Positions 6,669 through 55,967 of a DNA stretch of 64,000 bases are shown here, piece after piece. Positions within the stretch are counted from its first letter, which is position 1, and the number at the start of each line of letters is the position of its first letter. The notes under the pieces were generated by a model, which worked only from the letters and a program-made list of their open reading frames with translations, was not told the origin of the DNA and did not search any database. Made by a program: the position numbers and the translations under genes. The DNA comes from Candidatus Poribacteria bacterium (GTDB lineage: Bacteria; Poribacteria; WGA-4E; WGA-3G): positions 2,141,743 through 2,205,742 of the forward strand of contig OZ244048.1 of assembly GCA_965215265.1 (NCBI GenBank), written 5' to 3'.

Positions 6669-7382
6669 ATGGTCCGGGCTTGTTTAGTTTTTTTCATTCT
6701 ATTAACCGTCTCTTTGGGGATGTGGAACCTTATCGCACAAACCCAAGAAACACATGTTGAAAACGTTGAAAACGGAGTTGTGCGGGGTTACATTTCCGAT
6801 ATAACACGGCAACAATCACCGATTGCCAACGTTCACGTGACACTCACACGGCTTGAACCAGACTTCGAGACGACAACCAACGCGAAGGGCGAATTTGAGC
6901 TCACCAATTTAGCACCCGGACGCTACGTTGTTACTCTGAGTAAAGATGACTACGACCGGGGGATTGTACAACTTGTAACCGTTGTGAATAGGGGAGAGCA
7001 GTATGTCACACTTAAAATGGGCCCAGAGGCGATAGAAAACGTCCCAATTCCGGAAAAGATTCGCACGCCGGTACCAAAAAATGGCGGCACCGTCCGTGGG
7101 CAAATTGTGGATACATCAACCGCCCAAAACCCTATTCCTGACGTGCGTGTCGTCATTGCCAGCCAAGATGGCGAATATGAAGCGACAACAGATGCAAATG
7201 GCGAGTTTGAACGCACTGGTGTCCCCGCAGGACGCTACTTGATTAGTATCTATAGAGAAGGATACGGAGATCGCGAAGGCAAACCCGTAACCGTCGTGAA
7301 TGGCGGCGAGCACTATATTCCACTCAAGATGACTCAAAAATTCTCTTTTTTCCAAAAATTGGGAAAGGTCTTCGGTTTTTAA
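6669..7382 (+). CDS. secreted protein with two tandem carboxypeptidase-regulatory-like (CarboxypepD_reg, transthyretin-like) domains
   Basis: Signal peptide. Two ~80-aa repeats with the pattern G.VRG.I.D....PI..V.V.........T.T.A.GEFE...PG.Y......GY. The second repeat is nucleotide-identical (98%) to the N-terminus of the next gene. Confidence 0.55.
   Translation: MVRACLVFFILLTVSLGMWNLIAQTQETHVENVENGVVRGYISDITRQQSPIANVHVTLTRLEPDFETTTNAKGEFELTNLAPGRYVVTLSKDDYDRGIVQLVTVVNRGEQYVTLKMGPEAIENVPIPEKIRTPVPKNGGTVRGQIVDTSTAQNPIPDVRVVIASQDGEYEATTDANGEFERTGVPAGRYLISIYREGYGDREGKPVTVVNGGEHYIPLKMTQKFSFFQKLGKVFGF
7082..7333 (+). repeat. 252-bp segment 98.4% identical to 7693-7944 (copy 1, inside CDS 6669-7382)
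   Basis: Direct reading comparison gives 4 mismatches over 252 nt at an offset of 611 bp. Confidence 0.9.
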
Positions 7383-7603: not shown

Positions 7604-8599
7604 ATGAAACGTTTAAGTTTAATGTTAATGTTAGCTGCCTGTATCGGAATGTCCGCTGGAATCGTCTTTGCACAAGATGACATTGCCAGCAGTGGCGGCA
7701 CCGTCCGTGGGCAAATTGTGGATACATCAACCGCCCAAAACCCTATTCCTGACGTGCGTGTCGTCATTGCCAGCCAAGATGGCGAATACGAAGCGACAAC
7801 AGATGCAAATGGCGAGTTTGAACGCACTGGTGTCCCCGCAGGACGCTACTTGATTAGTATCTATAGAGAAGGATACGGAGATCGCGAAGGCAAACCTGTA
7901 ACCGTCGTGAATGGCGGTGACCACTATATTCCACTCAAGATGACCAAGAAAGACAATATCGTCTCCTTCTTCATGAAGTTCGGTTTCGTCTTCTGGCCCT
8001 TGGCTCTTTGTTCCGTCACAGCACTCACCTTCATTATTGAACGGCTCTTCACGTTCGTCCGAAGCCGTTCACGTATCGGCACCGAACAGTTCATCGCAAA
8101 CATCGCGGATTCTTTGCGGAAAGAGAATATCATGGAAGCCGTTTCAATCTGTGAAGAAGCAGGCGGACCCCTCGCCAACGTGCTTAAAGCAGGGCTCCTG
8201 CGTTACAGCCAAGCCCAGATTGAAGAACGCGACATTACCAAAGAGGAAATTCAGGAAGCGATTGAAGAAGCAAGCCTCCTTGAAATACCCGAATTGGAAA
8301 GAAATCTCCCTGTATTGGGAACAGTTGCAGTGGTTTCGCCCCTATTCGGTCTGCTCGGAACAGTCACTGGTATGATTAGTGCATTTACAACTATTGCACT
8401 TGAAGGTACGGGAGACCCGCAGCAGCTCGCCGGTGGTATCTCACAGGCTCTCCTCACGACTGCTGCAGGCCTAACAGTCGCTATTCCATGCCTGATCTTC
8501 TTCCAACTCTTTGATAGCTGGGTTAACAGGCACATGGTTGAGATTTCTCAGGTCTCCACTGAAATTGTTAACCAATTGGTTGTTGGTGAAGGGTCGTAA
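7604..8599 (+). CDS. exbB: MotA/TolQ/ExbB-family proton channel with an N-terminal signal peptide plus CarboxypepD_reg-like periplasmic domain (unusual fusion)
   Basis: RBS AAAGGAGG 7586-7593. The C-terminal 230 aa are a classic ExbB/TolQ (…LGTVAVVSPLFGLLGTVTGMISAF…AGGISQALLTTAAGLTVAIPCLIFF…). The N-terminal 110 aa are signal plus the GTVRGQIVD…GEFE…PAGRY…GY domain. Confidence 0.8.
   Translation: MKRLSLMLMLAACIGMSAGIVFAQDDIASSGGTVRGQIVDTSTAQNPIPDVRVVIASQDGEYEATTDANGEFERTGVPAGRYLISIYREGYGDREGKPVTVVNGGDHYIPLKMTKKDNIVSFFMKFGFVFWPLALCSVTALTFIIERLFTFVRSRSRIGTEQFIANIADSLRKENIMEAVSICEEAGGPLANVLKAGLLRYSQAQIEERDITKEEIQEAIEEASLLEIPELERNLPVLGTVAVVSPLFGLLGTVTGMISAFTTIALEGTGDPQQLAGGISQALLTTAAGLTVAIPCLIFFQLFDSWVNRHMVEISQVSTEIVNQLVVGEGS
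7693..7944 (+). repeat. 252-bp segment 98.4% identical to 7082-7333 (copy 2, inside the exbB-fusion CDS)
   Basis: See copy 1. Confidence 0.9.
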
Positions 8600-36441: not shown

Positions 36442-36570
36442 GTGGTGGCGGGAAAAGGGAATCCCAGTAGGTGGCGAGTAAAAGGTAGTAGTGCGTCACC
36501 TTCAGATGACGCAACACTACCTATCTCGCCACTTTGCTATCCTTCAGAATAAAAAAGAAAACCGGACCCC
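36442..36570 (+). repeat. intergenic repeat family A, copy A1 (REP/MITE-like, modular, internally palindromic)
   Basis: Shares modules ggtggcggg, cccagtaggtggcgagtaaaaggta and acctatctcgccactttgctatccttcagaataaaaaagaaaaccggacccc with A2, and inverted modules with A4. Confidence 0.8.
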
Positions 36571-37330: not shown

Positions 37331-37456
37331 GTGGTGGCAGGGAAAGGTATCCTAGTGGGTGACGAGTAAAAGGTTATCTTCTCTCATGGACAGAGAAAGA
37401 ATACCTATCTCGCCACTTTGCTATCCTTCAGGATAGAAAAAGAAAACCGGACCCCG
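37331..37456 (+). repeat. repeat family A, copy A2, a direct repeat of A1 on the other side of the metallopeptidase gene
   Basis: The last ~60 nt are near-identical to A1. Same orientation. Confidence 0.8.
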
Positions 37457-38012: not shown

Positions 38013-38175
38013 AAAAGGTGGCAGGAGAGGTATTCTTTATCTCTCCTTCAAGGAGAGATAAGATAACCTTTTATTTATAGATGGCGGGGATAAGGTATTC
38101 TTTGTCTCTCCTGCAAGGAGAGAGGAGTTCGGCGGGTGGGAGCCACCTGCCACCCACTGGGCGGAGCAACCTTTT
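38013..38175 (+). repeat. repeat family A, composite copy A3
   Basis: Contains gtattctttatctctccttcaaggagagataaga (13-bp palindrome) twice in variant form, plus cacctgccacccactggg. Confidence 0.7.
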
Positions 38176-41082: not shown

Positions 41083-41142
41083 ACATCAGCAAAACTAACG
41101 AATAAATTGAAACCCAAAATAGCAACACTAAACCACAAACTA

Positions 41143-41240
41143 GGTATTCTTTATCTCTTCTTTCAGGAGAGATAAGTGGCGAGATAGGTATCTTTCTCTG
41201 TCCATGAGAGAAGATTACCTTTTACCTGCCACCCACTGGG
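41143..41240 (-). repeat. repeat family A, copy A4 (inverted relative to A1)
   Basis: taccttttacctgccacccactggg is the reverse complement of the A1 module cccagtaggtggcgagtaaaaggta. It also carries the ggtattctttatctc…gagagataag palindrome. Confidence 0.75.
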
Positions 41241-41268: not shown

Positions 41269-44200
41269 GTGATAGAACTTTTACGCCATACCCAGAATTA
41301 TCAAAAACTGAGCACTGCCCTCAAACACAGGGAAGAACTTACATGGCTCCGAGGCTTGCCCAATGCATCCACGGCATATCTCTTAGCAGTGCTCATTGAC
41401 GACTTTCCTAATAAATCATTCCTAATTGTACTCCCATCACAACAAGAAGCAGAACAAGTGCACGCGGAAATCCAGACTTATTGGACGTATAGTCTTCCTA
41501 ATTCTGATGCCATGGATACTAGCACGCAAACACAAAAACCTCTGCCTGCACACCCACACATGACACTTTTTCCCGGATGGCAATCACAACTTTTTGATGG
41601 CATCCCGCCATCCAAAAATACGGCTGTCCAGCGGATGCAAACGCTGCAAACGTTGCTGCAAGCACGCGAACGCAGCGTGGTTGTAACGAACGCCCGAACG
41701 TTAACTTACAAACTGCCACCCCGTTCAACATTGGCAACCGCTTTCTGCGAACTTCAACTCGGTGATGAAGCAGAACCAGACGATGTCATTGAAATGCTCC
41801 TCTGCGGCGGTTATCAACAGGTCGAATTGGTAGAGGTCAAAGGCGAATTCGCTTTCCGCGGGGACATCCTCGATGTCTATCCCTCCACTCTTGATACACC
41901 CGTCCGAATCGAATTTTTCGGCGATGAAGTTGAGGCCATCCGCGCCTTTGAACCCATGTCGCAGCGCTCAACTGAACAACTTGATGCCGTTACACTCCCA
42001 CCGATGCGCGAAATTCTCGCACGTCACATCTCTCTCGAACACTGGCACTTGCAAACAGACCAAATCATCCAAGAATATGCAACGCCGCAATTGATACACC
42101 GTATTAATGAACTCACACAACACTTAAAGGAAGCTACTTGCGAGCCGACAATAAGACGCACACACACAACCGACAACTTTACAGCAGCACCCCCGATGTT
42201 CGATTGGATAGAGGCGTTCTTGCCGCTCCTCTATCCCAAAACTGAAGCACTCATCGACTATCTCCCCGATGACACTTGTGTTGTACTGATAGAACCACAC
42301 TGGCAAAAACGTGAAGCAGCCCAAATGCTCGAGCAGATGCACGAACTGTTTCAGAAAAATTTGGCAGAATCAAAACTCATGGTGCCACCAGATAAAATGT
42401 TCGTTCCATTTGAGGAGCTCCAGACGCAATTAAAGCAATATCCGCTCCTCTGTGCATCCTTGGCACCCCCACGCGACATCTCAGCCTCAGAAAAGACACA
42501 GCTACACTTTGATATGAAACCGTTGGGACTGCCACGAGGCAGCTACCAGATGGTTATCGACCACATCAAAACCTGGACAGACGAAGGATATCAGGTTTAT
42601 GTATTCTGTGAAACGCCACAGCAGGCGAAGCGCGTCTCAGAAATTTTAGCCGAACGAGAAGCCGACTCAGAAATCAGCGAACACGCTATCCACGCTAACC
42701 ACACGGACTTCACAGCCAGCAATCCTTATCGTCTTAATCGACTTTTCGTCACAGTCGGAACAATTACGGAAGGCTTCCTTAATGAATCGCTAAACATCGT
42801 TGTCATCTCCGAAGAAGAGATATTCGGCAATCGGCATCAACGGCGAATACGGCCGAAACGACCCAAGGACGGCACACCGGTTCTCAGCCTAATTGACTTG
42901 AAGATAGGAGACCATGTCGTGCATGTCTCGCACGGCATCGCGGTTTATGGAGGCATCCAGCGCTTGGATTTTAACGGAAAATTACAAGATTTCCTAGTCC
43001 TCAAATATAGCAATGACGATGTCCTCTATGTGCCTAATTATCAAGTCGAGCTGGTTCAAAAATATATCAGCAGCAACGATGAAACTTACAAACCGCGGCT
43101 AGACCGACTAGGCGGACCCGCATGGCGCAACCGAAAAAACAGAGTAAAAGCATCAATCGAAAAAATGGCCGATGAACTCCTCGAACTTTACGCCGCACGC
43201 CAAGCCCGAAAAGGTTATAGCTTCCCAGACGAAGTACCCTGGCAGACTGAATTTGAGGCCCTGTTTCCTTATCAAGAAACCGATGATCAGTTCCAAGCAA
43301 TTGAAGATGTTAAAGCCGACATGGAGGCAGAACAGCCCATGGACCGGCTCATCTGTGGCGATGTCGGATACGGTAAAACTGAAGTCGCCTTGCGCGCAGC
43401 CTTTAAAGCCGTCATGGCCGAAAGGCAGGTCGCCGTACTCGTTCCAACAACCATTCTCGCACTCCAGCACTACGACACCTTTGAGAAACGGTTCAAGCCC
43501 TTTCCTGTTCACGTCGAAATGTTGAACCGTTTCCGAACGCCAAAGCAGATAAAGCAGGTCAAAGCAGGACTCGCAGATGGCACGGTCGATATTGTTATCG
43601 GAACGCACAGCCTCCTCGCCAAAACCGTCGAATTTAGCAACCTTGGCCTCTTAATTGTTGACGAAGAACACCGATTCGGCGTGAGACATAAAGAGAAAAT
43701 TAAGAAATTTAAAGAGACAATTGACGTACTCACGTTGACCGCAACACCAATTCCGCGCACTTTGCACATGTCGCTCGTCGGAATCCGAGATTTCAGCGTT
43801 ATCAACACACCACCCGCCAATCGACTGCCGATTCAAACCTACGTGATGCCGTACAACACGGATGTCATCCGAACCGCAATCCTCCAAGAATTAAGTCGCA
43901 GCGGTCAGGTCTTCTTTGTACATAATCGCGTCCGGAGCATCCAGAGCATTGCCAAAAGGTTGGAGCAATTGGTCCCAGAGGCACGCATCGCCGTCGCACA
44001 TGGACAAATGCCCGAACGTGAACTCGAAACGATTATGCTTGAGTTTGTTCGCCACAAGCACGACATACTTGTTTGTACCATGATTATTGAATCCGGACTC
44101 GATATCTCGAACGTAAACACTATCCTGATTAACCGGGCTGATGCACTCGGGTTAGCCCAACTCTATCAACTTCGCGGGCGCGTCGGACGCGCCGAGGCAC

Positions 44201-44901
44201 AGGCGTACGGTTATATGTTCTATCCAGAGAACCAAGTAATTACCGAAGGCGCGCAGAAAAGACTCCGCGTCATTGAAGAATTTACCGACCTCGGCTCCGG
44301 TTTTAAAATCGCACTCCGAGACCTAGAAATCCGTGGAACAGGCAATATCCTCGGCGCAGAACAGCACGGACACATCGTTACAATCGGCTATGAACTTTAC
44401 TGCAAACTCCTTGAAGAAGCCGTTCAGAAGTTGAAAGGCGAAACGGTCGAGGAGAATATTGAAACGCGCATCAACCTACCTATTGAAGCTTACTTGCCAG
44501 ACGACTACGTACCAGATAGCCGCCAAAAGGTGGCGGTTTACCGAAAAATTGCCGCCTTAAAAAACGAAGAAGCCTTACAAGAACTTCGCGCTGAACTAAA
44601 CGATCGATACGGTGCTATTCCTGAACCCGCTCAGATGCTTCTCGCTGTCGCCAGTCTCAAGCAGCTTTGTCAAAAACTCAGCATTACCGCAATCGTGGCG
44701 GGGAAAGCACAGATAAAAGTCACTTTTGACGAGCACAAACCACGAATTAACATCGAACGGCTACTTGAGGACATCCGCAAAGATGATAAACTTCGGCTCC
44801 TTCCGCCAGCACAACTTATGATTCGCATGCCGAACGGAACAACCGGAGAGAAAATGCTTACTGAATTACAACAAACCCTAACACAGTTTGTTAAAACATA
44901 G
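41269..44901 (+). CDS. mfd: transcription-repair coupling factor
   Basis: 1210 aa. DEEHRFGV DExH box and helicase motifs …LTLTATPIPRTL…, with UvrB-homology N-terminal and TRCF C-terminal domains. Confidence 0.9.
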   Translation: MIELLRHTQNYQKLSTALKHREELTWLRGLPNASTAYLLAVLIDDFPNKSFLIVLPSQQEAEQVHAEIQTYWTYSLPNSDAMDTSTQTQKPLPAHPHMTLFPGWQSQLFDGIPPSKNTAVQRMQTLQTLLQARERSVVVTNARTLTYKLPPRSTLATAFCELQLGDEAEPDDVIEMLLCGGYQQVELVEVKGEFAFRGDILDVYPSTLDTPVRIEFFGDEVEAIRAFEPMSQRSTEQLDAVTLPPMREILARHISLEHWHLQTDQIIQEYATPQLIHRINELTQHLKEATCEPTIRRTHTTDNFTAAPPMFDWIEAFLPLLYPKTEALIDYLPDDTCVVLIEPHWQKREAAQMLEQMHELFQKNLAESKLMVPPDKMFVPFEELQTQLKQYPLLCASLAPPRDISASEKTQLHFDMKPLGLPRGSYQMVIDHIKTWTDEGYQVYVFCETPQQAKRVSEILAEREADSEISEHAIHANHTDFTASNPYRLNRLFVTVGTITEGFLNESLNIVVISEEEIFGNRHQRRIRPKRPKDGTPVLSLIDLKIGDHVVHVSHGIAVYGGIQRLDFNGKLQDFLVLKYSNDDVLYVPNYQVELVQKYISSNDETYKPRLDRLGGPAWRNRKNRVKASIEKMADELLELYAARQARKGYSFPDEVPWQTEFEALFPYQETDDQFQAIEDVKADMEAEQPMDRLICGDVGYGKTEVALRAAFKAVMAERQVAVLVPTTILALQHYDTFEKRFKPFPVHVEMLNRFRTPKQIKQVKAGLADGTVDIVIGTHSLLAKTVEFSNLGLLIVDEEHRFGVRHKEKIKKFKETIDVLTLTATPIPRTLHMSLVGIRDFSVINTPPANRLPIQTYVMPYNTDVIRTAILQELSRSGQVFFVHNRVRSIQSIAKRLEQLVPEARIAVAHGQMPERELETIMLEFVRHKHDILVCTMIIESGLDISNVNTILINRADALGLAQLYQLRGRVGRAEAQAYGYMFYPENQVITEGAQKRLRVIEEFTDLGSGFKIALRDLEIRGTGNILGAEQHGHIVTIGYELYCKLLEEAVQKLKGETVEENIETRINLPIEAYLPDDYVPDSRQKVAVYRKIAALKNEEALQELRAELNDRYGAIPEPAQMLLAVASLKQLCQKLSITAIVAGKAQIKVTFDEHKPRINIERLLEDIRKDDKLRLLPPAQLMIRMPNGTTGEKMLTELQQTLTQFVKT

Positions 44902-45007
44902 CAAGCTTGTAGAAGCGCAATTCATTCTCTGCCTCTCCACGCTTGCATCTTTAAACCATCGGAGCACTGTGAAAAGCACAGAGTCTTTCTCATAGCTCTC
45001 CATTTCT

Positions 45008-45097
45008 GATTACCACAGCAGCCTAAATCGGCTCTGACGAGATTTGTATAGGTATTATGAAAGCAGCAGCCTTTTATAATGCTTCAGGAGACAAAAA
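45008..45097 (+). repeat. repeat family B, copy B1 (core …ggctc[tc]gacgagatttgta…gcagcagcctt…)
   Basis: ~97% identical to B2 over 90 nt. Lies just 3' of mfd. Confidence 0.8.
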
Positions 45098-45217
45098 TAT
45101 GTAGCCGCGAGCTGATGCTCGCGATTCTTAATCGGAGATTCGCAGGAAAAGGTATTGACCTAAAGGTTAATTAATACCTTACCTGCGAACTTGAACCACA
45201 AAAAAGGAACTATGAAT

Positions 45218-46258
45218 ATGAAAAAAACGATTACTATTTTGAGCATCGTCGCCATAACTTGCCTGTTGACATGGCGATTTGTTCAGTCCGATAGCCATGT
45301 TGGAATTGGGCCGGTGGAAGCCACAGAAGAGCATTCTGCAAACCAGACATCTACAGACGATGAGAATCTACAGATTGTGGCTGAATTTAAATGGAACGGC
45401 CAACGTCATCAAATTTCTCTCGCAGACTTGAACGCCGCAATAGCAGAACTGCCGGTTTACCGCCAGCAAAACTATGAAAACCGGGCGGACAAAGCCGAAT
45501 ACTTAGAAGAACTGATAGAGGAACGCCTCAAAATCCTACGTGCTACTGACGAAGGGTTTGATAAACTACCAGAACACCTCAAAAAGTTAGATGACTATAC
45601 CCATCAACTCATGTTGGAAAAACTGACCGAAATTGAAGTAGACCAGAAAATCGTCTACACCGATGACGAACTCATGGCACACTATGAGGAAAACATAAGC
45701 GAGTACATTGAAGACGCTAAAGTCCGAGCAACCTGCATCAGCCTCGACGATGAAGACCTGGCCAACGAAACGTTAGATGCAATTATAGCAGGCAAAGACA
45801 TCGTAGAAATGGCAAATGAACTCTTTCAGGCAGGCAAATTAGCCAACGGCCCCGGAACCAATCGCGATGAACCCGGGAACACATATCTCTTTACAAAGGC
45901 AGTCTCTCCACGCTGGGAGGAATTCATCAACGCCACATTCGCCCAAGAAATTGGCGAAATCACCGATACCGTCTTTGAGACCGAGGTCAACGAGCAAACA
46001 TTCTATCTTATTTTCAGAAAAGAGGAACACCACCCCGAACGCCAGATGGAATTCGACGAGGTTAAAGACGATATCATACGCGACATCGAACGCAACAAGA
46101 AGCAGCTGCGCATAAACGAGTGGTTAGAAGAAATTTATGAACGCGGGAAACTGAAGACCTACCCTGAGAATATTCCTACTCCCTCAGAACCAGCGGAAGA
46201 GGAAAATCAAACTCAAGAGCATCCCTCAGATACCAAACAAGGAGAAAACGAGAATTGA
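45218..46258 (+). CDS. SurA-like periplasmic chaperone paralog with a degenerate parvulin (PpiC) domain
   Basis: Signal peptide. SurA_N-like …AEFKWNGQRHQISLADLNAAIAELP…. The parvulin-like region lacks GGDLG. Confidence 0.55.
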   Translation: MKKTITILSIVAITCLLTWRFVQSDSHVGIGPVEATEEHSANQTSTDDENLQIVAEFKWNGQRHQISLADLNAAIAELPVYRQQNYENRADKAEYLEELIEERLKILRATDEGFDKLPEHLKKLDDYTHQLMLEKLTEIEVDQKIVYTDDELMAHYEENISEYIEDAKVRATCISLDDEDLANETLDAIIAGKDIVEMANELFQAGKLANGPGTNRDEPGNTYLFTKAVSPRWEEFINATFAQEIGEITDTVFETEVNEQTFYLIFRKEEHHPERQMEFDEVKDDIIRDIERNKKQLRINEWLEEIYERGKLKTYPENIPTPSEPAEEENQTQEHPSDTKQGENEN

Positions 46259-47307
46259 AAACTTTAATCACAACGTTAACACACGCACGTGCCGCCCAGA
46301 ACAGCCTCGCATATCTGAGCCTATTCGCGATTATTGTGACACTACCCCTATTCTATGCATGCGGCGACAAAGCCATCGGAGCAGACGGAACTGTCATTGC
46401 TGAATTTGAATGGAACGGGAAGCACAAAATCACACTCGAAGAGATGATGCAGGAAATTAGTGAGCTCCCTGAATACAAACAACGCAAATATCAGGACAAA
46501 GAGGGACTCGAAACCTACATGCTCCTCATGGCAGAGAGCCGGCTCATCCTCAACCTCGCACGCGATATGCAACTCCAAGAAGATCCCGAAATCCTCAAAA
46601 AGGTTCAGGACTATCTTCATGAGCTAATGGTAAAGAAAATTACCACCCAGGAAGTTGATGACAAACTCTCTTTGAGTGAAGCGGATTATATCAGCTATTA
46701 CGAGGCACATAAGCAAGACTACATCCGTCCAGCACAAGTCCGACTCCTATGTATCACCCTGCTCAACAAGGAGCGCGCTGAGGAAGTCTTCGCGGAAATC
46801 AACGCAGGCAAAGACATCGCTGAAGCTGCACAGGAACTCTCCGATAGAGGCGAGCTCGTCGGACCAGGCGCAAACCCCGCAGCACCCGGCGATACCGACT
46901 ACATTGGTAGAAGCGCCTTTCCATCAGGCACAGAACCTTTCTTGGATGCAGCATTCTCCGCTGAAATCGGAACATTCCACGACAAGATAGTTGAAGTTGA
47001 CGTGCAAGGACAGAAATACTACATGATCTTCCGAAAAGACGAAGCACGCGATGAATACCAAAAACCTTTTGAGGAAGAAGATGTACGCAAAAATGTCGTC
47101 CGAAAGGCTGAACGCGAAAAACGACAAGCACTCATGAAAGAGTGGATCGCCAGCCTCAGGGAACGCGCTGAAGTCATCACATACATTGACCGCATCCCTG
47201 AAGCACAAAACGAAGAAGCACCTGCCGAAACCGAACCTGAGGCACAACCCGAACAAACGCCTGAGGCACAACCCGAACAAACGCCTGAGGACAATCAACC
47301 TGAATAA
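46255..47307 (+). CDS. second SurA-like paralog (degenerate PpiC) with a C-terminal 24-bp x2 PEAQPEQT repeat
   Basis: …AEFEWNGKHKITLEEMMQEISELPEY… parallels the previous gene. 4-nt overlap implies an operon. Tandem repeat at 47239-47286. Confidence 0.55.
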   Translation: MKTLITTLTHARAAQNSLAYLSLFAIIVTLPLFYACGDKAIGADGTVIAEFEWNGKHKITLEEMMQEISELPEYKQRKYQDKEGLETYMLLMAESRLILNLARDMQLQEDPEILKKVQDYLHELMVKKITTQEVDDKLSLSEADYISYYEAHKQDYIRPAQVRLLCITLLNKERAEEVFAEINAGKDIAEAAQELSDRGELVGPGANPAAPGDTDYIGRSAFPSGTEPFLDAAFSAEIGTFHDKIVEVDVQGQKYYMIFRKDEARDEYQKPFEEEDVRKNVVRKAEREKRQALMKEWIASLRERAEVITYIDRIPEAQNEEAPAETEPEAQPEQTPEAQPEQTPEDNQPE

Positions 47308-47325
47308 CCAATTTTGATTACCACA

Positions 47326-47406
47326 GCAGCCTAAATCGGCTCTGACGAGATTTGTATAGGTATTATGAAAGCAGCAGCCTTTTATAGTACTTCAGGAGAC
47401 AAAAAG
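47326..47406 (+). repeat. repeat family B, copy B2
   Basis: Near-identical to B1. Followed by a 15-bp perfect hairpin. Confidence 0.8.
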
Positions 47407-47408
47407 TT

Positions 47409-47451
47409 GTAAAGTGTCTAAAGTTACTACACAAGACTTTAGACACTTTAC
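47409..47451 (+). terminator. 15-bp perfect-stem hairpin after surA-like gene 2 (gtaaagtgtctaaag-N13-ctttagacactttac)
   Basis: Perfect inverted repeat with no U-tract. Confidence 0.4.
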
Positions 47452-47496
47452 AGCCCTTTAAACTTGAAGGAACCACGTTATGCTATGCCTAATGCG

Positions 47497-47565
47497 TCTC
47501 CGACGAGATTTACACTGTCATTAACAAAGCATAAAGCGTGATGGTACGGAGATATACAAAACACC
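47497..47565 (+). repeat. repeat family B-related element F1 (ctccgacgagattta…gatggtacggagatatac), abutting the surA start
   Basis: Shares both modules with F2 at 54847-54935. Confidence 0.7.
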
Positions 47566-48849
47566 ATGAAATGCAAAATCGGGGCTTATCTCTTGCTAAC
47601 TCTGATGTTTATCAGCACGGGGACAGCACGCACTTTTGACACCATCATCGCCTACGTCAACGATGATGTCATTACACAACGCGAACTTGATACCTTAGTC
47701 AAACAACGCGCCATGGAACTCCAACAGATGTACCGTTTCACTGAACGAGAGGCACTTCAGGAAGCCGAGCGGCAACGCCCAGAACTCCTTGATAGGCTCA
47801 TCCGCCAAATGCTCCTCCTTGAAGCAGCACTCACCTTGAAAGTCAACGTGACATCTGTAGAAGTTGAACAATACATCCAAGACTTTAAAAAGAGATACCA
47901 GATTAAGACAGATGAGGAACTTCAAAAACAGTTGAATCGCGAAGGACTCACCCTCATCGGGTTTCGGGAACAGACAGAACGCAACCTCAAAGCAGAGAAG
48001 TTAGTCATGGGCAGAATTATACCACGACTCCAGATTCGCGACAGTGAAGTCCAAAAATTTTTTGAAGAGAATCGGGACCAACTCCCAACTAAATCAGATA
48101 AGGTCCGATTCCGGCACATCTTTGTCGCTTTCAAACCGACGCAGACGGAACGTGACACCGCACTGCATAAAATTCACACCGCACGAAACGACATCGAAAA
48201 AGAACCAGCGCAGTTTGAACGCATCGCACGGCAAGAAATCGACGACTCCAACAACTCTCAAGTCGGCATACTCATAGAAGCTAGCCCCGAAGAGCTCAAA
48301 GAGTTCCCCGAAAACTTTCAAAATGCGCTAACCAATCTCAACGCTGGTGAATTTAGTGAACCCATCCAAGGAAACGAAGGGCTCTATCTCTTCAAAGTAG
48401 AAACAAAAACTGACACGCTCATCGCGTTTCGCTATCTCATCGTTCCGATTAAGTTGACTGAAGAAGCGAAACTTGAAGCACGGCTGCACGCCGCCAAAAT
48501 TTTTACAAAATTGGAGGAAGGACAACACTTCAACACCCTCGCCGCTGAACATTCCGACGATACGGAAACACGCGAAGACGGCGGCGACCTTGGCGTCCGC
48601 TCCCTGATTGAAATCAATCCAAAAACACGCAGAATCGTTGAAGCCCTCGAAGAAGGGACTTACAGTCAACCTTTTGAAACCGATTCCGGAATCCACATTT
48701 TTAAACTAGATGAACGAAATACACCCGAACTGAGCGAGGCCGAGAAAAAGCAGATTATCTCTATACTCCGCCAGCAGCGCTTTCAGGAAGAATGGGATGC
48801 ATATACCGATAGCCTCCTCGAAAACGCTTACGTCAAAATAAAACCGTAG
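47566..48849 (+). CDS. surA: periplasmic chaperone/peptidyl-prolyl isomerase SurA (two parvulin domains)
   Basis: Signal peptide. SurA_N (…IIAYVNDDVITQRELD…) and two PpiC-type domains. Confidence 0.75.
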   Translation: MKCKIGAYLLLTLMFISTGTARTFDTIIAYVNDDVITQRELDTLVKQRAMELQQMYRFTEREALQEAERQRPELLDRLIRQMLLLEAALTLKVNVTSVEVEQYIQDFKKRYQIKTDEELQKQLNREGLTLIGFREQTERNLKAEKLVMGRIIPRLQIRDSEVQKFFEENRDQLPTKSDKVRFRHIFVAFKPTQTERDTALHKIHTARNDIEKEPAQFERIARQEIDDSNNSQVGILIEASPEELKEFPENFQNALTNLNAGEFSEPIQGNEGLYLFKVETKTDTLIAFRYLIVPIKLTEEAKLEARLHAAKIFTKLEEGQHFNTLAAEHSDDTETREDGGDLGVRSLIEINPKTRRIVEALEEGTYSQPFETDSGIHIFKLDERNTPELSEAEKKQIISILRQQRFQEEWDAYTDSLLENAYVKIKP

Positions 48850-48938
48850 AAGCAATCTCCAACTCGCTACGCCTTTTCCACAATGAAAAAATACACACCT
48901 TTTTTTCATCCTGTTTCTCCTCAGGAGGGGGACGCACT

Positions 48939-51900
48939 TTGAACTTTCAAGACGCGCCGGCAAGCGGCGAACGAAAACCTAAATTTTGGGACACTTGCGC
49001 AGCTGCCATAATCGCACTACTCGCAATCCCGTACCTCCACTCTCCGGCAGCACCCGCGCATCCCGCTCTTAACGCACGGCTCATCGCTCAAACACCCCCG
49101 CCGGAACAGACAGAGACACCCACTGAGCCCCAAGAAGAAACAGACGAAAAAGAAAATGCCCCTACATTCAATCCAGAGCAGGAGACACCTGACTCCGGGT
49201 TTGTCATCGGCGACGGAGACGAGATGGTGATGCACGAGAATCTCGTACAAATCCATGGAAACGCTCTCGTCAAATTTGGGGATATCACTTTGCGGGCAGA
49301 CCACGTCTGGGCCGATTTCACCGAAAACGTCAATTTAATCCGCGCATCCGGGAACGTACATCTCATCACCGGCGACGAGGAGACATTCTCTGATGAACTC
49401 GTCTTTAACCTCGAAACCAAAAAGGGCATCGCACGAAACGGCTTTACCTACAGCGACCCCTGGTACTTCGGCGGGAGTGAAATCTTTAAAATTGAAGATA
49501 AGACATCTTACGTCCGAAGTGCTAGCTTGACAACCTGTTCCCTCAAATATCCACACTACTATTTTAGCGTCTCACGCGTTATCATACGAGTCAACGACGA
49601 GCTCATCGCCAAAAATATCATACTCCGCATCGGAGGCTTCCCACTCTTCTATTTTCCAGCCATCCGACGCGATCTGCAGAAGGGAAAAATCGCTAAAATT
49701 ATTGTCAAAGTCGGAACCGATAGCTACCAAGGCCCTTATATCAGTATCATTCAACCTGTCGCACGCAAAAGACGCTACGATGGCGCACTCCTCTACGATA
49801 GAAGTGCACGCAGAGGACACGGCTTCGGGCTTGAAACAAAATATCGATTCAATGATACACAATTCCAAGAAATTTATATCCCTATTCCACCCGACCTAAC
49901 CGCCGCGCAACGCTCAAAATTGGAGGATAAAGCCAAAGAGATACGCGAACGGCTCGAAGGCAAATACAACCGATATTGGCTAAAGCAAATTTTCCTACCT
50001 TATGAAATTACGGATGCTGACTTCAAACGCGCGAAAGAGAACGCTGAAGAACTGCATAATCAACTTGTCCAAGAAAACGCAGATTTCGCACAACTCGCAC
50101 AGCAGCATTCTAGCCACGAAACTCGATACGAAGGGGGCGACTTAGGGTTCATCACATTCGGAGAACTGATTGAGGACACAGAAAAATCAACGCCTGCCTC
50201 TAAAAACACAGATAAAAATACCGAAACACCGCAAACCCAATCCGGATCAGAAGACGCAGCACAAACAGACGACGATACGCCGCAATCCGATGATAAACCA
50301 CCACAAACAGACGACGATGCACCGCAATCCGATGATGAACCACCACAAACAGACGACGATACGCCGCAATCCGATGATGAACCACCACAAACAGACGACG
50401 ATACGCCGCAATCCGGATCAGAAGACGCAGTGCAGCCCATTGGGACACCCAAACTCGACCCGATTTTAGAAACAGCAGCATTTCAACTAGAGGAAGGCCA
50501 AATCAGTCAGGTTTTAAAGACTGAATCCGCTTTTCACATCCTCAAAATCGAACGGGCCCTTGATGTATACGGAGAACGCGAAATACAGGTCCGACGGATT
50601 GATATTAACATTGAACCCAGCGACGAAACACGGCAGAAAATACGCGAAACCGCAAATCAAATTTATCAACGTGCACACGAAGGCGAACCCTTGGAAAAAC
50701 TTGCCGAAGAATTCGACGAAGCCGCTTTATCAGAAATCAACCAAGGCAAAGGACTCCCACTCAATCAAATGGAGTCCGGATGGCAATATTCTGTCAGAAG
50801 GTTAGAGAAGCCCGGCGAAATCATACAACGCCGGCCAGTTTCCGCACCAGAGGGGTTATACATCTTCCAATTAATTAAAAAAGAAGAGACTCCCTCCTTT
50901 GAACAACTCGCTCAAGAATTTGAATTGGAATGGGAAACCTTCCAACAAGAGGTCATGCGTTCAACCGAAGAAGAGAAACAGGAAAACGCAGAAAAAAACC
51001 AAACAGCCGCAGCTGCCGAACCTCTACAAGCTAAAAGTATAGCACCGCAACAAAAGAAAAAAACAGAAGAAAAAAACGGAACACCTACACAACTAGACGA
51101 GCAGCCGGACGCGGAGAGTGAGAACACAACCCAAGAAGAAGATGAAGAAGATGAAGAAGATGAAGCAGCAGCAGCAGAGCAGGGTGTCTATCGAAAACAC
51201 GGATTTCGCGGACAGTGGGAAGATCCCCGCATGGTCGCAGCCGAAGCACGCAGTTTGTACACCGGCGAATTCAGTCGTGTCGTAAAAACAAAAAAAGCGA
51301 TCCGCCTTATTAAGGTCGATCGAAAACGCACTTACCGCGGGGATTTCTACTTCTACGGCAAAGATGCATACTCCTTCGACAGGCAGAACGCAACTCGTAT
51401 CGGCAGAACATGGATATCCCGATGGGGACACACGCAAGCTATCTATACACCCTGGGATAATCGCCAAGAAGGACGCCGCCCTATCAACTTTACCGGACGC
51501 CTCGAATGGCGCGCCCGAAACTACAAAGAAGAACTCCGACTCCCCGGAGAATCCACACTCAAATCGTTTGGACTCCTTAACTACGGCTCCGCATTCACCA
51601 CATGGTCTACTCAAGATGTCGATGAAAACAATAATCTCAAATTCTCAATGGAAACTATCGGAGATTTCGCAGGACGACTCGAAATCCGACATATCTATGA
51701 TTTCACCCAACAAGGCACTACATCTTTACAAAAACTCCCACAACTCTCCTTAAACTTTTCACGGATGCGGTTTAGCCAACTGCCTCTCTTTCGAACCATT
51801 AACTCCGGGTTAGTCTACCTCTCCGAAAAAGCCCAAAGCGACAAACCTTTTCTCTCACTACTCTCTGTACCAACATTAGATAACACCAGCTTCGATCTGG

Positions 51901-53012
51901 ACATGGAATTCGGAAATTTCTTTAGACAAATCTATAAAGGCAAAAACGAGGAAGAGAGAGATGTCTTCCTGCAGACGCTTGACTTCGGTTTTGACCTGCG
52001 CAAACAGGCAACCTTACTCATTACCCCGCTGCGCGAATTGGTAACCAACATCAATCTGAATACAAACTTTATCTGGCACGACCGGGACCAGGACAAAAAC
52101 AGGAACATTATCCGCGGCGTTTATAGTTTCAACGGCTCCGCCACAAATACACTCTTCCGTGTCTACAATATTAGTTTCATCCCACGGGCACGTAAACTAC
52201 GGCACGAGATGCAATCATCACTCCGGTTTGATTACCAACCCCCTGTTGATCGGAACGATAATCTCTATCCCTTCGGCCCCAGCACCTATTTCTACGAACG
52301 GAAAAGGATCGTCTATAACTTCAACACGAACATCGAAATTAAGACACAGCGCAGCCAATCCCCACATCGTATCTTCCATTTTGACACCCGACTCACTGCC
52401 GACTTTACCAAATTCGACCCGCTAAACAGACGCAAATATGAACCGATCGAGAGTGATTTCACTATCATACCGCTCCCCAATCGCAGCCTGAACATGACCG
52501 TCCGACTCACCCACGACCCCAATCCACACCCAGAGGACGGTACCATGTTCAAAGTTGTCGGAATCCGTTCCAACATCCGATACACACGACAGAAGTGGAA
52601 TGTCAGCATCGGAAACTCCTTTAGCAAACGGCACACCGCCATTCGAGCATCACGCTCCATCACCGCCAATGGCAGATACCGATTTAACGAGAACCTCGAT
52701 TTCGATTTCAACCTCATCTTTTATCCGATCGACAGGGACTTCTACTCACAACGCATTAGTATCAATCGGAACTTACACGATTGGAACTTGCGCGTCTCTT
52801 GGAGCCGCATCGGCATTAAACGCGGGCCGCCACCCCATAACAACGTCCGACAAGATTTCACTTTTCAGATTAGCTTAATTCCAGAACCAGCAGTCTCAAT
52901 GGGCATCGGCTACGATGCCACTACCGAAACATGGGGACTCCGTACCTTACCCGCCGGCGCACCTTACAACGCTTTCGGGGTAGGAAATGCACTCGGACGT
53001 TCTTACTTCTAA
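48939..53012 (+). CDS. LptD/OstA-like outer-membrane protein (1357 aa) carrying an embedded parvulin (PpiC) domain split by acidic PQ[ST]DD tandem repeats
   Basis: RBS AGGAGGGGG plus TTG. N-terminal LptA/OstA-type beta-jellyroll (…FGDITLRADHVWADFTENVNLIRASGNVHLITGDEE…). PpiC signature …ADFAQLAQQHS….GGDLGFITFGEL – [repeat insert] – AAFQLEEGQISQVLKTESAFHILKI. Long C-terminal beta-rich region ending …GRSYF-stop. Confidence 0.55.
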   Translation: MNFQDAPASGERKPKFWDTCAAAIIALLAIPYLHSPAAPAHPALNARLIAQTPPPEQTETPTEPQEETDEKENAPTFNPEQETPDSGFVIGDGDEMVMHENLVQIHGNALVKFGDITLRADHVWADFTENVNLIRASGNVHLITGDEETFSDELVFNLETKKGIARNGFTYSDPWYFGGSEIFKIEDKTSYVRSASLTTCSLKYPHYYFSVSRVIIRVNDELIAKNIILRIGGFPLFYFPAIRRDLQKGKIAKIIVKVGTDSYQGPYISIIQPVARKRRYDGALLYDRSARRGHGFGLETKYRFNDTQFQEIYIPIPPDLTAAQRSKLEDKAKEIRERLEGKYNRYWLKQIFLPYEITDADFKRAKENAEELHNQLVQENADFAQLAQQHSSHETRYEGGDLGFITFGELIEDTEKSTPASKNTDKNTETPQTQSGSEDAAQTDDDTPQSDDKPPQTDDDAPQSDDEPPQTDDDTPQSDDEPPQTDDDTPQSGSEDAVQPIGTPKLDPILETAAFQLEEGQISQVLKTESAFHILKIERALDVYGEREIQVRRIDINIEPSDETRQKIRETANQIYQRAHEGEPLEKLAEEFDEAALSEINQGKGLPLNQMESGWQYSVRRLEKPGEIIQRRPVSAPEGLYIFQLIKKEETPSFEQLAQEFELEWETFQQEVMRSTEEEKQENAEKNQTAAAAEPLQAKSIAPQQKKKTEEKNGTPTQLDEQPDAESENTTQEEDEEDEEDEAAAAEQGVYRKHGFRGQWEDPRMVAAEARSLYTGEFSRVVKTKKAIRLIKVDRKRTYRGDFYFYGKDAYSFDRQNATRIGRTWISRWGHTQAIYTPWDNRQEGRRPINFTGRLEWRARNYKEELRLPGESTLKSFGLLNYGSAFTTWSTQDVDENNNLKFSMETIGDFAGRLEIRHIYDFTQQGTTSLQKLPQLSLNFSRMRFSQLPLFRTINSGLVYLSEKAQSDKPFLSLLSVPTLDNTSFDLDMEFGNFFRQIYKGKNEEERDVFLQTLDFGFDLRKQATLLITPLRELVTNINLNTNFIWHDRDQDKNRNIIRGVYSFNGSATNTLFRVYNISFIPRARKLRHEMQSSLRFDYQPPVDRNDNLYPFGPSTYFYERKRIVYNFNTNIEIKTQRSQSPHRIFHFDTRLTADFTKFDPLNRRKYEPIESDFTIIPLPNRSLNMTVRLTHDPNPHPEDGTMFKVVGIRSNIRYTRQKWNVSIGNSFSKRHTAIRASRSITANGRYRFNENLDFDFNLIFYPIDRDFYSQRISINRNLHDWNLRVSWSRIGIKRGPPPHNNVRQDFTFQISLIPEPAVSMGIGYDATTETWGLRTLPAGAPYNAFGVGNALGRSYF
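50268..50417 (+). repeat. in-frame 42-bp tandem repeat x ~3.5 (DDD[AT]PQSDD[EK]PPQT) inside the LptD-like CDS
   Basis: Units at 50268, 50310, 50352 and a partial one at 50394. It is flanked by a longer direct repeat (…caatccggatcagaagacgcag…). A 9-bp x3 EED repeat lies at ~51131. Confidence 0.85.
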
Positions 53013-53096
53013 CATTATTAAATTGAAGACTCATAACCTAGAATGGCTCCCACTGGGAGCCTACTTAGGCATAGTCTTTTGAAGTCAAAGCATCAG

Positions 53097-53161
53097 AAGG
53101 CTCCGACGAGATTTGTAAAGGGTTTAACATTGCAGCAGCCTTGTATCGGGCTCCTGTAGAC
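53097..53161 (+). repeat. repeat family B, copy B3 (variant), 3' of the LptD-like gene
   Basis: gaaggctccgacgagatttgtaaagggtttaacattgcagcagccttgtatcgggctcctgtagac. Preceded by the small hairpin ggctccc-act-gggagcc at 53045-53061. Confidence 0.7.
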
Positions 53162-53820
53162 GAAAAGGCGATTTCAAGCAACTGAGCGCGGTTTTATATG
53201 AATGGAGAATCTACTACAGCACTGGATACCGGGTTTATTTCGGCGTTTTCCGCACCACAGCTATTCTGCTTTGTGGCGGAACTAAACGCACACAACAGCA
53301 AGACATTGCCAGAACACAAAACTATTGGAACGACTTCTTAGTACACAGGAAGGAACAAGGACAACAAATACCGAAACGAGGCTTCAGAGGCGCACATTGC
53401 CTTTCAATCCCCCTTTTCTTAAAGAACTTGCTGAACTGGGGTTTGCCAAAGTTTATCTGGAAGCTGCATGAGCCGATTTTGACAAGGATAGGAACATTGA
53501 AAGACTATTGCACGCCATAAAAGAGGTAGCAGAAGCACAAAGCGGAATTGGCATCCTTGTTGCATGGACACAACTCAGTTATCAGAATCTTGCTTATCTT
53601 CTTCGTGTCAAACATCCATTGCAATTGGATAAAACGTTAGATTCAAAAACAGAAACCGCTCATCAACCTAACCGTAGCGTGGACAGAGACGCTAATATCA
53701 TTGTCATCGACTTCGTGAACGGAAAAACGGAGAAAATCGGAACAGATTGAAACACTGAAACCGAAGCTGTTTTTTTATGAAACGAAGACACACCGACTGA
53801 CTCAGGGGCATTCCGATGCC

Positions 53821-54546
53821 TTAGTCTGCTTCAACATCCACAAGTAGCTCACGTCCATTCAACGGTTGCACCGGACGACTATTGCCCTGCATAATCGTTT
53901 CAAATGCCAAAATTTGCGATTCAGACATTTCAATAGGTGTCGTTATTATGAACCATTTGACCCCTTCCGAACACGGCGGAGTCGTTAACGAACCCTCGTA
54001 ACGATAGGTATGCCTCGTGCTTGGCAACAGTTCGTCGGCATTGACGGTAACACTCTCAATGCTGCGCATCTCGCCCGATACGGATGGCAAATTGCTCCAG
54101 ATTGAAGCAAACGTCGGATTATCACTTCCACGTTCTATTAACACACCAACCACAGCCAACGTTCCATCCTCACTTTGGTGAACGTAGTGCATCTCCATGT
54201 CAAACGCTCTACCGGCTACTGTATGTTCACCGGGGGCGTGGAAGTGGAATTGTTGCAATTCATACCTTGTGCCATCAACCTCAATCCAACTCCCTTCATT
54301 GTATGCAACTTGAATAGTATGTCCAGTATTGCGAATGTTCAAAACCGTTGGCTGGTATTTGAAAGTCATCGCTGGAAGTTCAACAGCTATCGGGTTCACC
54401 AAATCAATCGGCGATTGGTGTATCCCCACAGCACAAATGGCATACTCCGGATTTAATTGCCCCCAGATGTTTGGACCATTTTCTTCTGTATAACCCCACT
54501 CTACTGTGTGGGATTCACTAACTAATTCTTCGTGTATGATATCCAT
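53821..54546 (-). CDS. alpha-class carbonic anhydrase (apparently without a signal peptide)
   Basis: QSPIDL, HFHAPGEHTV…MEMHYVH and the SLTTPPCSEGVKWF zinc-ligand/active-site blocks. Confidence 0.85.
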   Translation of the reverse strand: MDIIHEELVSESHTVEWGYTEENGPNIWGQLNPEYAICAVGIHQSPIDLVNPIAVELPAMTFKYQPTVLNIRNTGHTIQVAYNEGSWIEVDGTRYELQQFHFHAPGEHTVAGRAFDMEMHYVHQSEDGTLAVVGVLIERGSDNPTFASIWSNLPSVSGEMRSIESVTVNADELLPSTRHTYRYEGSLTTPPCSEGVKWFIITTPIEMSESQILAFETIMQGNSRPVQPLNGRELLVDVEAD

Positions 54547-54682
54547 TATAAACTTATATCCATGAACTATAGTAGATTTAGTACGCTATCTTTATCCGTA
54601 TGCCATTTCAGGATGTTTACCAAGAACACGAAGCAAACGTTCATCTGCACCTTCCAAGACATAGTCAGGCATACGTTTGTTT

Positions 54683-54807
54683 GTCTACAGGAGCCCCATA
54701 CAAGGCTGCTGCAATGTTAAACCCTTTCCAAAACTCGCTCTTTAGTATATTTCAGCACAACAACGATGGCTGTAATGAACAACGAAAGCACAAATCTCGT
54801 CGGAGCC
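54683..54807 (-). repeat. repeat family B, copy B5 (inverted, with a ~62-nt internal insertion)
   Basis: The reverse complement reads ggctccgacgagatttgtg-[insert]-gggtttaacattgcagcagccttgtatggggctcctgtagac. Confidence 0.7.
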
Positions 54808-54846
54808 ATTTTAGGTTTTGATTTTAAAAGACTATACCTAGTTAAC

Positions 54847-54935
54847 CTCCGACGAGATTTACATCGGATTTAACAATACATAACCCTTGATGGTACCAAG
54901 ATATACAAAAAGATGGTACGGAGATATACGAAAAG
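54847..54935 (+). repeat. element F2 (ctccgacgagatttaca…gatggtaccaagatatacaaaaagatggtacggagatatacg, internally duplicated)
   Basis: Matches F1 modules. Confidence 0.7.
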
Positions 54936-55110
54936 AAGTGTTTGTTCTTTTGACATATTTCTAATACCTAAAAAAGCGTGTCTCCTGTTAAGATTCTTAA
55001 AAGTTTTCCGTTAATAACTCATGTCCTATTAGTATTCTGTGATAACTAGGGAAAGTCGTTCAGGCTGTTTACCCAATTCAGAGCCGTTTATGTTTAGATT
55101 CATAGCATAA

Positions 55111-55176
55111 GAAGGCTCCGGCGAGATTTATACAGGTTTTAGCATAGCAGCAGCCTTGTTGCGGGCTCCTGTAGAC
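55111..55176 (+). repeat. repeat family B, copy B4
   Basis: gaaggctccggcgagatttatacaggttttagcatagcagcagccttgttgcgggctcctgtagac. Confidence 0.7.
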
Positions 55177-55967
55177 AAATGAACCAAATCGATGTGGGCA
55201 GATGCAATGATATCGGCACCCATTCGCCCTGAAACTGCCTGTCGTTGGCAGCATTGATGACTGTGCAATCGGTGAATGTCACTCGCGCCCCCTTCAATGA
55301 CTTTTCCTGAATCTTGATACCGTAACCGACGGTATTCTCAACTGTGCAGTTATTAAATTCAATATGCCCCCTGGTCCATCGTCTCGAATCTTTGAAACGC
55401 GGATACCCGTTCCGTGTTGACTGCTGATGTAGCAATTTTCAAAGTGCATCGTCACAGCCTCGGATTCACCGGTGGTGTGCGCCAAGAACACTTCGATACC
55501 GTCTCCGCTGTTATCGACGTTGACGTTCTTGCAACCGCCTCTTCCAACGTCATCCGCCACTCGCCCTTTGGATACTGTCCATACCAGCGATGCCAGCCAA
55601 ATTGTTCGAGTACGAGCCCTGTGATATAGTCCTGTTTCCACATCCTGAAAGTCGCGCCGTAGCCACGGATGGTGAGATTCTCCACATTTTGTGCTGTTAA
55701 CATGGAGTCCCCTTTTCCCCGATATTCCCCGCGTTTTGCGGTAACGACTGTGCCGGGTTCAAAAAGCAATTCTTGATTCCCGGCAAGCCGAATTGGCTGA
55801 ATTATCCAATCGGTGTGCATATTCGGCACAAACACGCGTTTCGCGCCGGAGTCAATTGCTGCCTGCAGCGTCGTTGTCGCATCTTCAGGATCAAAACCCC
55901 ACCACGCAGCATTGGCAAAAGTCTTTTCTCCAGAACGAATCTCTTCAATCGCTTCAAGATTTTTCAT
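55139..55967 (-). pseudogene. frameshifted right-handed beta-helix (pectate-lyase-fold) protein gene
   Basis: Three successive minus-strand ORFs in three different frames (55967-55452, 55641-55294, 55435-55139) together read as one beta-helix protein (…AAWWGFDPEDATTTLQAAIDSGAKRVFVP…, …NCYISSQHGTGIRV…, …NCTVENTVGYGIKIQ…FTDCTVINAA…). The last ORF runs into repeat B4. Confidence 0.55.

Follow-up and report, generated by a model that had tools for sequence, protein, structure and literature searches.

The 64-kb stretch of Candidatus Poribacteria DNA analysed here (contig OZ244048.1; the whole stretch is called the window below) carries, within 45.0–55.2 kb, eight copies or part-copies of one ~80–95-nt element, designated B/F, and the rest of its 64 kb has no copy. 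On the evidence below, B/F is probably a family of short interspersed DNA repeats that is non-autonomous, of a selfish, insertion type, non-coding, unstructured and, so far, specific to Poribacteria. Its copies are insertions relative to the orthologous sites in relatives. They land in 3′ untranslated regions (3′UTRs) before the terminator, directly upstream of start codons and antisense between genes, and elsewhere also inside open reading frames (ORFs); new copies arise near old ones, in a local proliferation.

One repeat family with a near-invariant core

The copies listed in an earlier note on this DNA are all present where it had placed them and read as it had quoted them (B1–B4, B5a, B5b, F1 and F2; Table 1). 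In a repeat search, the B copies on the plus strand, four in number, fell into one family and F1 and F2 into a second; the copy on the minus strand was recovered through inverted matches to B1–B4. B1 and B2, which the note had put at ~97% identity, are 98% identical over 95 nt; identity is 91–93% between B3 and B5b (93% over 58 nt), 86% between B3 and B4, and 75% between F1 and F2. B and F copies are 68–76% identical to one another, so that F is a diverged subfamily of the one element, and a multiple alignment of both, with about 30 invariant columns, groups them as one family. The minus-strand copy, to which the note had ascribed a ~62-nt insertion, is better taken as two copies: B5a, full but diverged, and after it B5b, which is 5′-truncated.

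From 5′ to 3′, the element consists of a GCATCAGAAAS-like lead-in (~12–25 nt), a near-invariant 14-mer core (CTCYGRCGAGATTT), a variable body of ~50 nt that carries a TTTAACA/ACTACA block, and an A-rich tail, GAC[AG]AAAA. The consensus over Poribacteria reads (T)GCATCAGAAAS - CTCYGRCGAGATTT - TCA.nG..TTTACAACTACAG... - (C)TAGGCATAGAC/GACGAAAA, and the window copies form a ~70%-identical branch of this wider family. The core occurs exactly seven times in the window, every time between 45032 and 55129. When up to two mismatches are allowed there are ten matches (three extra, all weak) compared to 1.7 expected, and none of 100 shuffles reaches ten core matches. That the copies form a genuine repeat family, and not a chance likeness, is upheld. 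GCAGCAGCCTT is found five times in the window, in B copies only, and GATGGTACGGAGATATAC three times, confined to F1 and F2. A profile hidden Markov model (HMM) built from 19 copies revealed no further copy at E ≤ 10 in the other 54 kb of the window. Both 5′-truncated copies, with the A-rich 3′ end intact, and 3′-truncated copies are present; truncation is frequent, as is interleaving with other small hairpin repeats.

Filled and empty sites in a sister species

Comparisons outside the window were made with loci of 8–22 kb, cited here by their L numbers where needed. A sister species (L036, on a 4.0-Mb contig) has a SurA that is 79% identical and the same DUF3108–mfd–PPIase–PPIase–surA–lptD gene order (PPIase, peptidyl-prolyl isomerase), and there is no copy of the element in its 21 kb at L036 nor in a second 21-kb locus (L041). 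In pairwise alignment with L036, B2 is a clean ~97-nt insertion, flanked by the stop-codon region (GGAATAAC) and by a conserved hairpin that the two species share. Its junctions, AATAAC(C/T)CA and (C)TGT(A/G)AAG, show no target-site duplication, with a 1-nt ambiguity remaining. B1 sits between conserved flanks, upstream of a conserved terminator-like hairpin, GCCGCGAGC..GCTCGCG. F1 lengthens the surA leader by ~59 nt and displaces an older GGAG; the leader in L036 is shorter and has its own GGAG.

At 4000–4013 of L036, mfd is preceded by ...CTCTAGACGAAAA-ATG, which is like the element's own 3′ tail (in B3, TGTAGACGAAAA). No copy is recognised at this place by the HMM, and the likeness may reflect a decayed remnant or chance. 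A comparison of L007 with L012 was discarded as a test of conservation, the two being strains of ~97% identity and so uninformative.

Distribution among genomes

One genome per bacterial or archaeal species (185,579 species genomes) was searched with a degenerate pattern made up of the core and three invariant downstream positions. Matches with element-like flanks occurred in Candidatus Poribacteria only: seven in five loci of the 5.5-Mb chromosome OY282383.1, and single ones in four other metagenome-assembled genomes. Among the pattern matches in Haloarcula, Clostridia and others, the core alone is shared and lies inside coding sequence, and scans of JGI metagenomes and of IMG/VR viral sequences gave core-only chance matches and no element copy. 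The profile HMM recovered additional copies beyond those picked by the pattern, with 20 or more copies in loci other than the window. In these other genomes the neighbours or hosts of the element are dxs, tlyA-like, thiL-like, phosphoribosyltransferase, radical-SAM, alcohol dehydrogenase (ADH), ABC-2, BatA/VWA and HSP70-like genes. The SurA and carbonic anhydrase proteins of the window match proteins on a 4.83-Mb contig at 100% identity, and their remaining homologues are named Poribacteria. A full-text search of a literature library returned no description of intergenic repeats in Poribacteria.

Copies inside ORFs in the OY282383.1 lineage

The BatA/VWA gene of OY282383.1 (811 aa, Pfam) holds three copies, one antisense (6258–6330) and two sense. 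In a nine-way protein alignment, orthologues of 85% identity or less are all gapped exactly at these copies, while a 95% strain keeps the segments, and DNA alignment gives the insertions as 87, 54 and ~36 nt. The first of them reads GTT-element-AAC, compared to an uninterrupted GTTAAC at the empty site, again with no target-site duplication. Two more ORFs have a copy each: an AsmA-like one, in whose open frame the fourth in-ORF copy is found, and an HSP70-like one, where the fifth runs antisense. In-ORF copies thus occur in either orientation; those seen all keep the frame, and the window itself has none.

The two sense copies in BatA are 280 nt apart and hence in different reading frames, where they translate as ...KPPTRATSNFKLQQ... 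and ...ETSDENYKQLQTTA...; with copies in two orientations and two frames, a repeat at the protein level is excluded. The idea that B/F is a protein-coding fragment, such as a duplicate of some gene's 5′ end that encodes ...SDEIF.AVKTT...., starts from the fact that one frame (GSDEI...) is open through many copies and is the translated frame in two ORFs. It is refuted by the frames and orientations of the in-ORF copies and is, in our estimation, extremely improbable: none of the three codon positions varies in the core, open frames are no commoner in the copies than in shuffles (0.27 versus 0.24), stop codons lie just upstream, and most copies have no start codon.

Tests for RNA structure and termination

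The earlier note had proposed a small structured RNA or a terminator/insulator family, to be checked with an Rfam scan and with alignment and covariation analysis. Intergenic location would suit such a family, as would the position of several copies just downstream of genes. Rfam, however, had no match for any part of the window at gathering thresholds, and a cut-off of E ≤ 5 for 44.8–55.4 kb brought up nothing relevant. RNAalifold, run with the six local copies and with 17 copies from seven genomes, returned an invariant 3-bp CTC/GAG stem alone, with zero compensatory pairs. Single-copy folds had z-scores from +0.4 to −1.5 on either strand, the exception being B1, the one copy that folds better than shuffles (z = −2.7). 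No hairpin followed by a T-run was found on the sense strand of any copy in a promoter/terminator scan, and the terminator-like hairpins adjoining B1 and B2 are older flanks that are found in L036 too. Copies, moreover, persist within coding sequence in both orientations. The proposal is therefore largely refuted and very improbable, although restriction of the copies to this window, which the note had named as telling against it, is not what we find, the family reaching other Poribacteria genomes.

The note had further described the family as concentrated at the 3′ ends of envelope-biogenesis genes. The placement of copies relative to genes is as it described (Pfam), though mfd does not belong among the envelope genes, and the copies F1 and B5 are at gene 5′ ends. 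The link to envelope biogenesis is incidental: neighbours in other genomes are unrelated, and the same cluster in the sister species is without a copy.

Three other candidates for structure or origin were rejected. Against a hammerhead-like reading of CUGACGAG, most copies have C in place of the U, a GAAA/stem arrangement is missing, and Rfam is silent. An outer hairpin, TTGCAT...ATGCAG, seen in L018 is missing from L007, L025 and the copies of the window and is not a family feature. As to a tRNA or tmRNA origin, the region has no such genes.

Copies abutting start codons

Of about 20 independent copies that lie between genes, seven have their end ≤12 nt upstream of a co-oriented start codon. 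The genes so abutted are unrelated (ABC-2 permease, radical SAM, Zn-ADH, phosphoribosyltransferase, AsmA-like, methyltransferase and surA). Since AAGGAG-type ribosome-binding sites are usual (29 of 40 Poribacteria genes sampled), start-abutting copies replace, rather than typify, the usual start region. The element tail is without such sites in most copies.

These copies raise the question of a portable promoter/leader cassette, in which the element would carry a promoter or a regulator-binding site (the 14-mer), together with a leader that has an A-rich translation start region, and would be kept and copied before genes whose expression it drives or coordinates. In F1, such a copy has taken the place of the older surA leader and left surA intact, B5 lies upstream of the carbonic anhydrase gene in the same orientation, the majority of copies are sense to neighbouring genes, and a strict 14-mer in an otherwise 70%-identical element resembles a protein-binding site. 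We nevertheless consider a cassette quite unlikely. The scan found no sigma-70-type −35/−10 pair on the sense strand of any copy, and promoters of the sigma-70, Bacteroidetes, sigma-54 and ECF types, considered by eye as well as by scan, were all rejected for want of a −35/−10 pair consistent across copies. B1 and B2 lie between stop codon and terminator, B3, B4 and F2 have no co-oriented downstream gene, and antisense and in-ORF copies exist. Furthermore, the orthologous genes of the sister species manage without the element, the downstream genes are functionally unrelated, and the usual ribosome-binding site is missing from most element tails.

The 3′ ends of B1 and B2 (45086–45103 and 47394–47411) read AGGAGACAAAAATATGTAG and AGGAGACAAAAAGTTGTAA, with a Shine–Dalgarno-like AGGAG, an 8-nt spacer, a start codon and an immediate stop; this could be a start–stop mini-ORF or a coincidence.

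Local clustering and breakpoints

Eight copies are found in 10 kb of the window, five within 3 kb around batA and nine matches in the 22-kb L040. L014 and L018 are contiguous and together have at least seven copies, including two tandem units of 118-nt period. A breakpoint recurs directly after the core (GAGATTTGT/GAGATTTTTGCGG), in B5 of the window, in L014 (3562–3531) and in a split copy upstream of batA, which has different inserts in two strains, one being the CCCCGCAAAGCGGGG hairpin module. In the L014 case, a short copy, the core is joined directly to the tail.

The gene order shared with the sister species stops exactly at B3. Since B5b is inverted relative to B3, the B3/B5b pair flanks the alpha-carbonic anhydrase gene. 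In the sister genome the 72% orthologue of this gene has other neighbours and is ~170 kb away from the surA locus; the coding region alone aligns (78% DNA identity). The independent breakpoints just after the core, the end of shared gene order at B3 and the 93% inverted pair around a gene that lies elsewhere in the sister genome would all suit copies that act as recombination sites, with a site-specific recombinase that binds, or makes its crossover, at the 14-mer and with copies marking junctions of capture, inversion or deletion, in integron- or dif-like fashion. We give this improbable alternative little weight, as Pfam shows no recombinase gene nearby in the window, there is no attC-like imperfect palindrome, and most copies (B1, B2 and the BatA insertions) are the element inserted alone, with no cargo.

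The carbonic anhydrase gene, of eukaryotic type, lies in ~1.2 kb of apparently non-coding DNA (flanks 53172–53820 and 54547–55100). In the OY282383.1 lineage (L018 1700–2660, L014 840–880 and L040 9860–9900), hairpin modules recur beside or inside B/F-type copies, GTAGGGGTAG(G)..CCTACCC and CCCCGCAAAGCGGGG(T/A)AAATACC, one of them inside the AsmA-like ORF, and make up mosaic repeat blocks.

Copies and genes in the window

Positions are collected in Table 1. A TTAGGCATAGTC motif (53065–53076) lies just upstream of B3, and the 3′ end of F2 is duplicated in tandem (23 nt, 54889–54933). The frameshifted minus-strand gene at B4 comprises three overlapping ORFs (171, 115 and 98 aa), of which the 171-aa piece has no Pfam match. 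Its last residues are the translated reverse strand of B4, so that the repeat appears to have truncated this gene, which also looks decayed. Genes with DUF5069 and DUF4403 (Pfam) follow downstream of the carbonic anhydrase region, and the remaining genes of the window are housekeeping genes (gltB, ggt, metK, ahcY, S1 and others).

Table 1. Copies of the B/F element and adjacent genes, in window coordinates.
Feature	Position	Strand	Remarks
mfd	41269–44901		Pfam
B1, full copy	45003–45099	+	Core 45032–45045; between mfd stop (44901) and older terminator-like hairpin 45106–45123
PPIase-like genes, two	45191–46258, 46255–47307		Pfam
B2, full copy	47311–47407	+	Core 47340–47353; between second PPIase-like stop (47307) and older hairpin 47401–47459
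F1, full copy, diverged subfamily	47482–47562	+	Core 47498–47511; A-rich 3′ end 5 nt upstream of surA ATG (47566)
surA	47566–48849		Pfam
PPIase/LptD-like protein, 1357 aa	48939–53012		Pfam
B3, full copy	53084–53168	+	Core 53101–53114; downstream of LptD-like gene and hairpin 53043–53060
Alpha-carbonic anhydrase	53821–54546	−	Pfam
B5b, 5′-truncated copy	54680–54737	−	Starts within core (GCGAGTTTTGG); inverted relative to B3
B5a	54741–54827	−	5′ part and core (54792–54805) intact, 3′ half diverged; head-to-head with F2
F2, full copy	54831–54933	+	Core 54847–54860; no co-oriented downstream gene
B4, full copy	55099–55183	+	Core CTCCGGCGAGATTT at 55116–55129; overlaps 3′ end of opposite-strand frameshifted gene (55139–55967)

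Other repeats were noticed in the window. A separate, strongly palindromic family lies between genes in both orientations (36455–36570, 37343–37454, 38015–38127 and 41142–41240), with nested hairpins such as AGGTATTCTTTATCTCTCC..GGAGAGATAAG and GGTGGCGAG..CTCGCCAC. It looks like repetitive extragenic palindromes (REP) or bacterial interspersed mosaic elements (BIME). L036 lacks the block of this family that separates the DUF3108 gene from mfd, and its spacer there is shorter by ~110 nt. In the ORF at 48939–53012, positions 50250–50457 form a tandem array of 21 nt (7 aa) that encodes PPQTDDD(A/T)PQSDD(E/K), within an acidic linker of the 1357-aa protein, in which PPIase domains are joined to an LptD-like C-terminus; the protein of a 99% strain is 13 aa shorter (1344 aa). 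Finally, a 259-nt direct repeat of 97% identity (7082–7340 and 7693–7951) lies in adjacent CarboxypepD_reg genes, the second of which is fused to a MotA/ExbB domain, and suggests a recent domain duplication or gene conversion.

A possible mode of spread and its consequences

For B/F as an insertion-type repeat family, we envisage that an enzyme encoded elsewhere and acting in trans would recognise the 14-mer and would move or copy the element without inverted repeats or target duplications; moved in this way, the copies would be non-autonomous passengers. Among the side effects of such insertions, B1 and B2 would lengthen the mfd and PPIase 3′UTRs, F1 would supply the last ~75 nt of the surA leader, translation start region included, and the inverted B3/B5 pair would bracket a relocated carbonic anhydrase gene at the break in gene order.

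Several observations weigh against this reading. No terminal inverted repeats are shared between copies, either in an inverted-repeat search (seed 6, 8 copies) or in the 17-copy alignment, and none of the three best-resolved junctions shows a target-site duplication, so that transposition is deduced from filled and empty sites only; the element may have spread by recombination or gene conversion instead. Pfam detects no transposase, integrase or reverse transcriptase in the window. Copy number and target preference are drawn from about 27 independent copies, with at least seven in OY282383.1 by the strict pattern. The invariance of the 14-mer is partly one of ascertainment, because outside copies were first found via the core and the HMM is weighted towards it; copies found by the HMM alone mostly retain the core (L040 18970, 20228, 11809 and 9841), and two in-ORF copies have decayed cores (GAGAGCT and GAGAACT). 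The excess at start codons, in turn, could reflect selection for a regulatory role and not insertion bias.

Two further candidates were looked at in this connection. TAGGCATAG, which precedes both B3 and B5 and recurs at the 3′ end of OY282383.1-type copies, was rejected as a terminal inverted repeat, its placement being inconsistent and its frequency in the window (five found versus 2.7 expected) not significant. The 95% strain of OY282383.1 has a gene with a Transposase_31 domain (PF04754, YhgA/Rpn-like) at L040 1–997 on the minus strand, ~9 kb away from the batA cluster; it has no adjoining element copy, and hence no link is shown.

It is possible, if unlikely, that the element represents a class of mobile DNA with an unrecognised mobilisation mechanism: a directional unit free of terminal inverted repeats, target duplications and structure, with a 14-nt word and the A-rich tail after it as its one strongly conserved feature, that inserts cleanly in either orientation (once at the centre of GTTAAC) and often exactly before start codons. 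The 5′-truncated copies, several in number and with intact A-rich 3′ ends, are compatible with reverse-transcription-based copying. Such a mechanism would mean that a dedicated sequence-specific nuclease or recombinase, or copying based on reverse transcription, operates in an uncultured phylum of sponge symbionts.

In the study of mobile DNA, a repeat family that enters new sites without inverted ends, target duplications or hairpins, and that retains one 14-nt word, offers a tractable handle towards the enzyme that would move it. For annotation, the ~90-nt blocks are best masked as repeats and not taken for small RNAs, terminators or small ORFs. Copies account for lineage-specific indels in Poribacteria proteins (BatA/VWA, AsmA-like and HSP70-like) and mark recent local rearrangement in a sponge symbiont, where gene order breaks after lptD, the carbonic anhydrase gene is relocated, one gene appears truncated and the surA leader is replaced.

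Comparison with known bacterial repeats

Rickettsia palindromic elements (RPEs) are short repeats found between genes and also in-frame within unrelated housekeeping ORFs, to which they add a peptide segment (PMC10969869). B/F resembles them as a short repeat (RPEs are ~100–150 bp) of a host-associated bacterium that is both intergenic and in-frame in unrelated genes. RPEs are palindromic, however, whereas B/F has neither an inverted repeat nor a stable fold, and its in-ORF copies are in both orientations and in different frames, without a conserved peptide. Miniature inverted-repeat transposable elements, or MITEs, such as Correia/NEMIS in Neisseria, ERIC/RU in enterobacteria and QMITE in Coxiella, can alter promoters, leaders and 3′UTRs and fuse into ORFs (PMC10969869, PMC3184786). 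B/F shares with MITEs its small size, its non-coding and multi-copy nature and a presence/absence polymorphism between relatives, being absent from the sister species, but it is without the terminal inverted repeats and target-site duplications that define them, and no parent insertion sequence is known for it.

In enterobacteria and pseudomonads, REP and BIME elements are, like B/F, intergenic, clustered and mosaic with other short motifs; in OY282383.1, B/F is interleaved with the hairpin modules CCCCGCAAAGCGGGG and GTAGGGGTAGG..CCTACCC. The REP/REPIN unit is a 20–40-nt GC-rich imperfect palindrome that folds into a stem-loop, whereas that of B/F is no palindrome and has the 3-bp CTC/GAG stem only. 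No RAYT-type transposase came to light, no search aimed at one having been made. Mycobacterial interspersed repetitive units (MIRUs) were reportedly described by Supply et al. in 1997 as directional, non-palindromic units of 40–100 nt located between the genes of operons, often in tandem, in sense orientation and with ends that touch stop and start codons. B/F is partly comparable to them, in being directional, in its tandem of 118-nt period at one locus (L018) and in the fraction of copies that abut start codons. MIRUs are mainly minisatellite arrays at fixed loci; B/F copies are mostly single per site, some of them antisense or in ORFs, and are clean insertions of a single unit. As regards integron attC sites and IS200/IS605-type ends, B/F has no folded palindrome or subterminal hairpin on either strand, DNA energy parameters not having been run separately.

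Having failed the defining tests of MITEs, of REP and RPE elements, of attC and IS200-type ends and of Rfam families, B/F is not classed here with any named family. We class it as a bacterial small interspersed repeat that, in its behaviour, is most like RPEs and, in general, MITEs.

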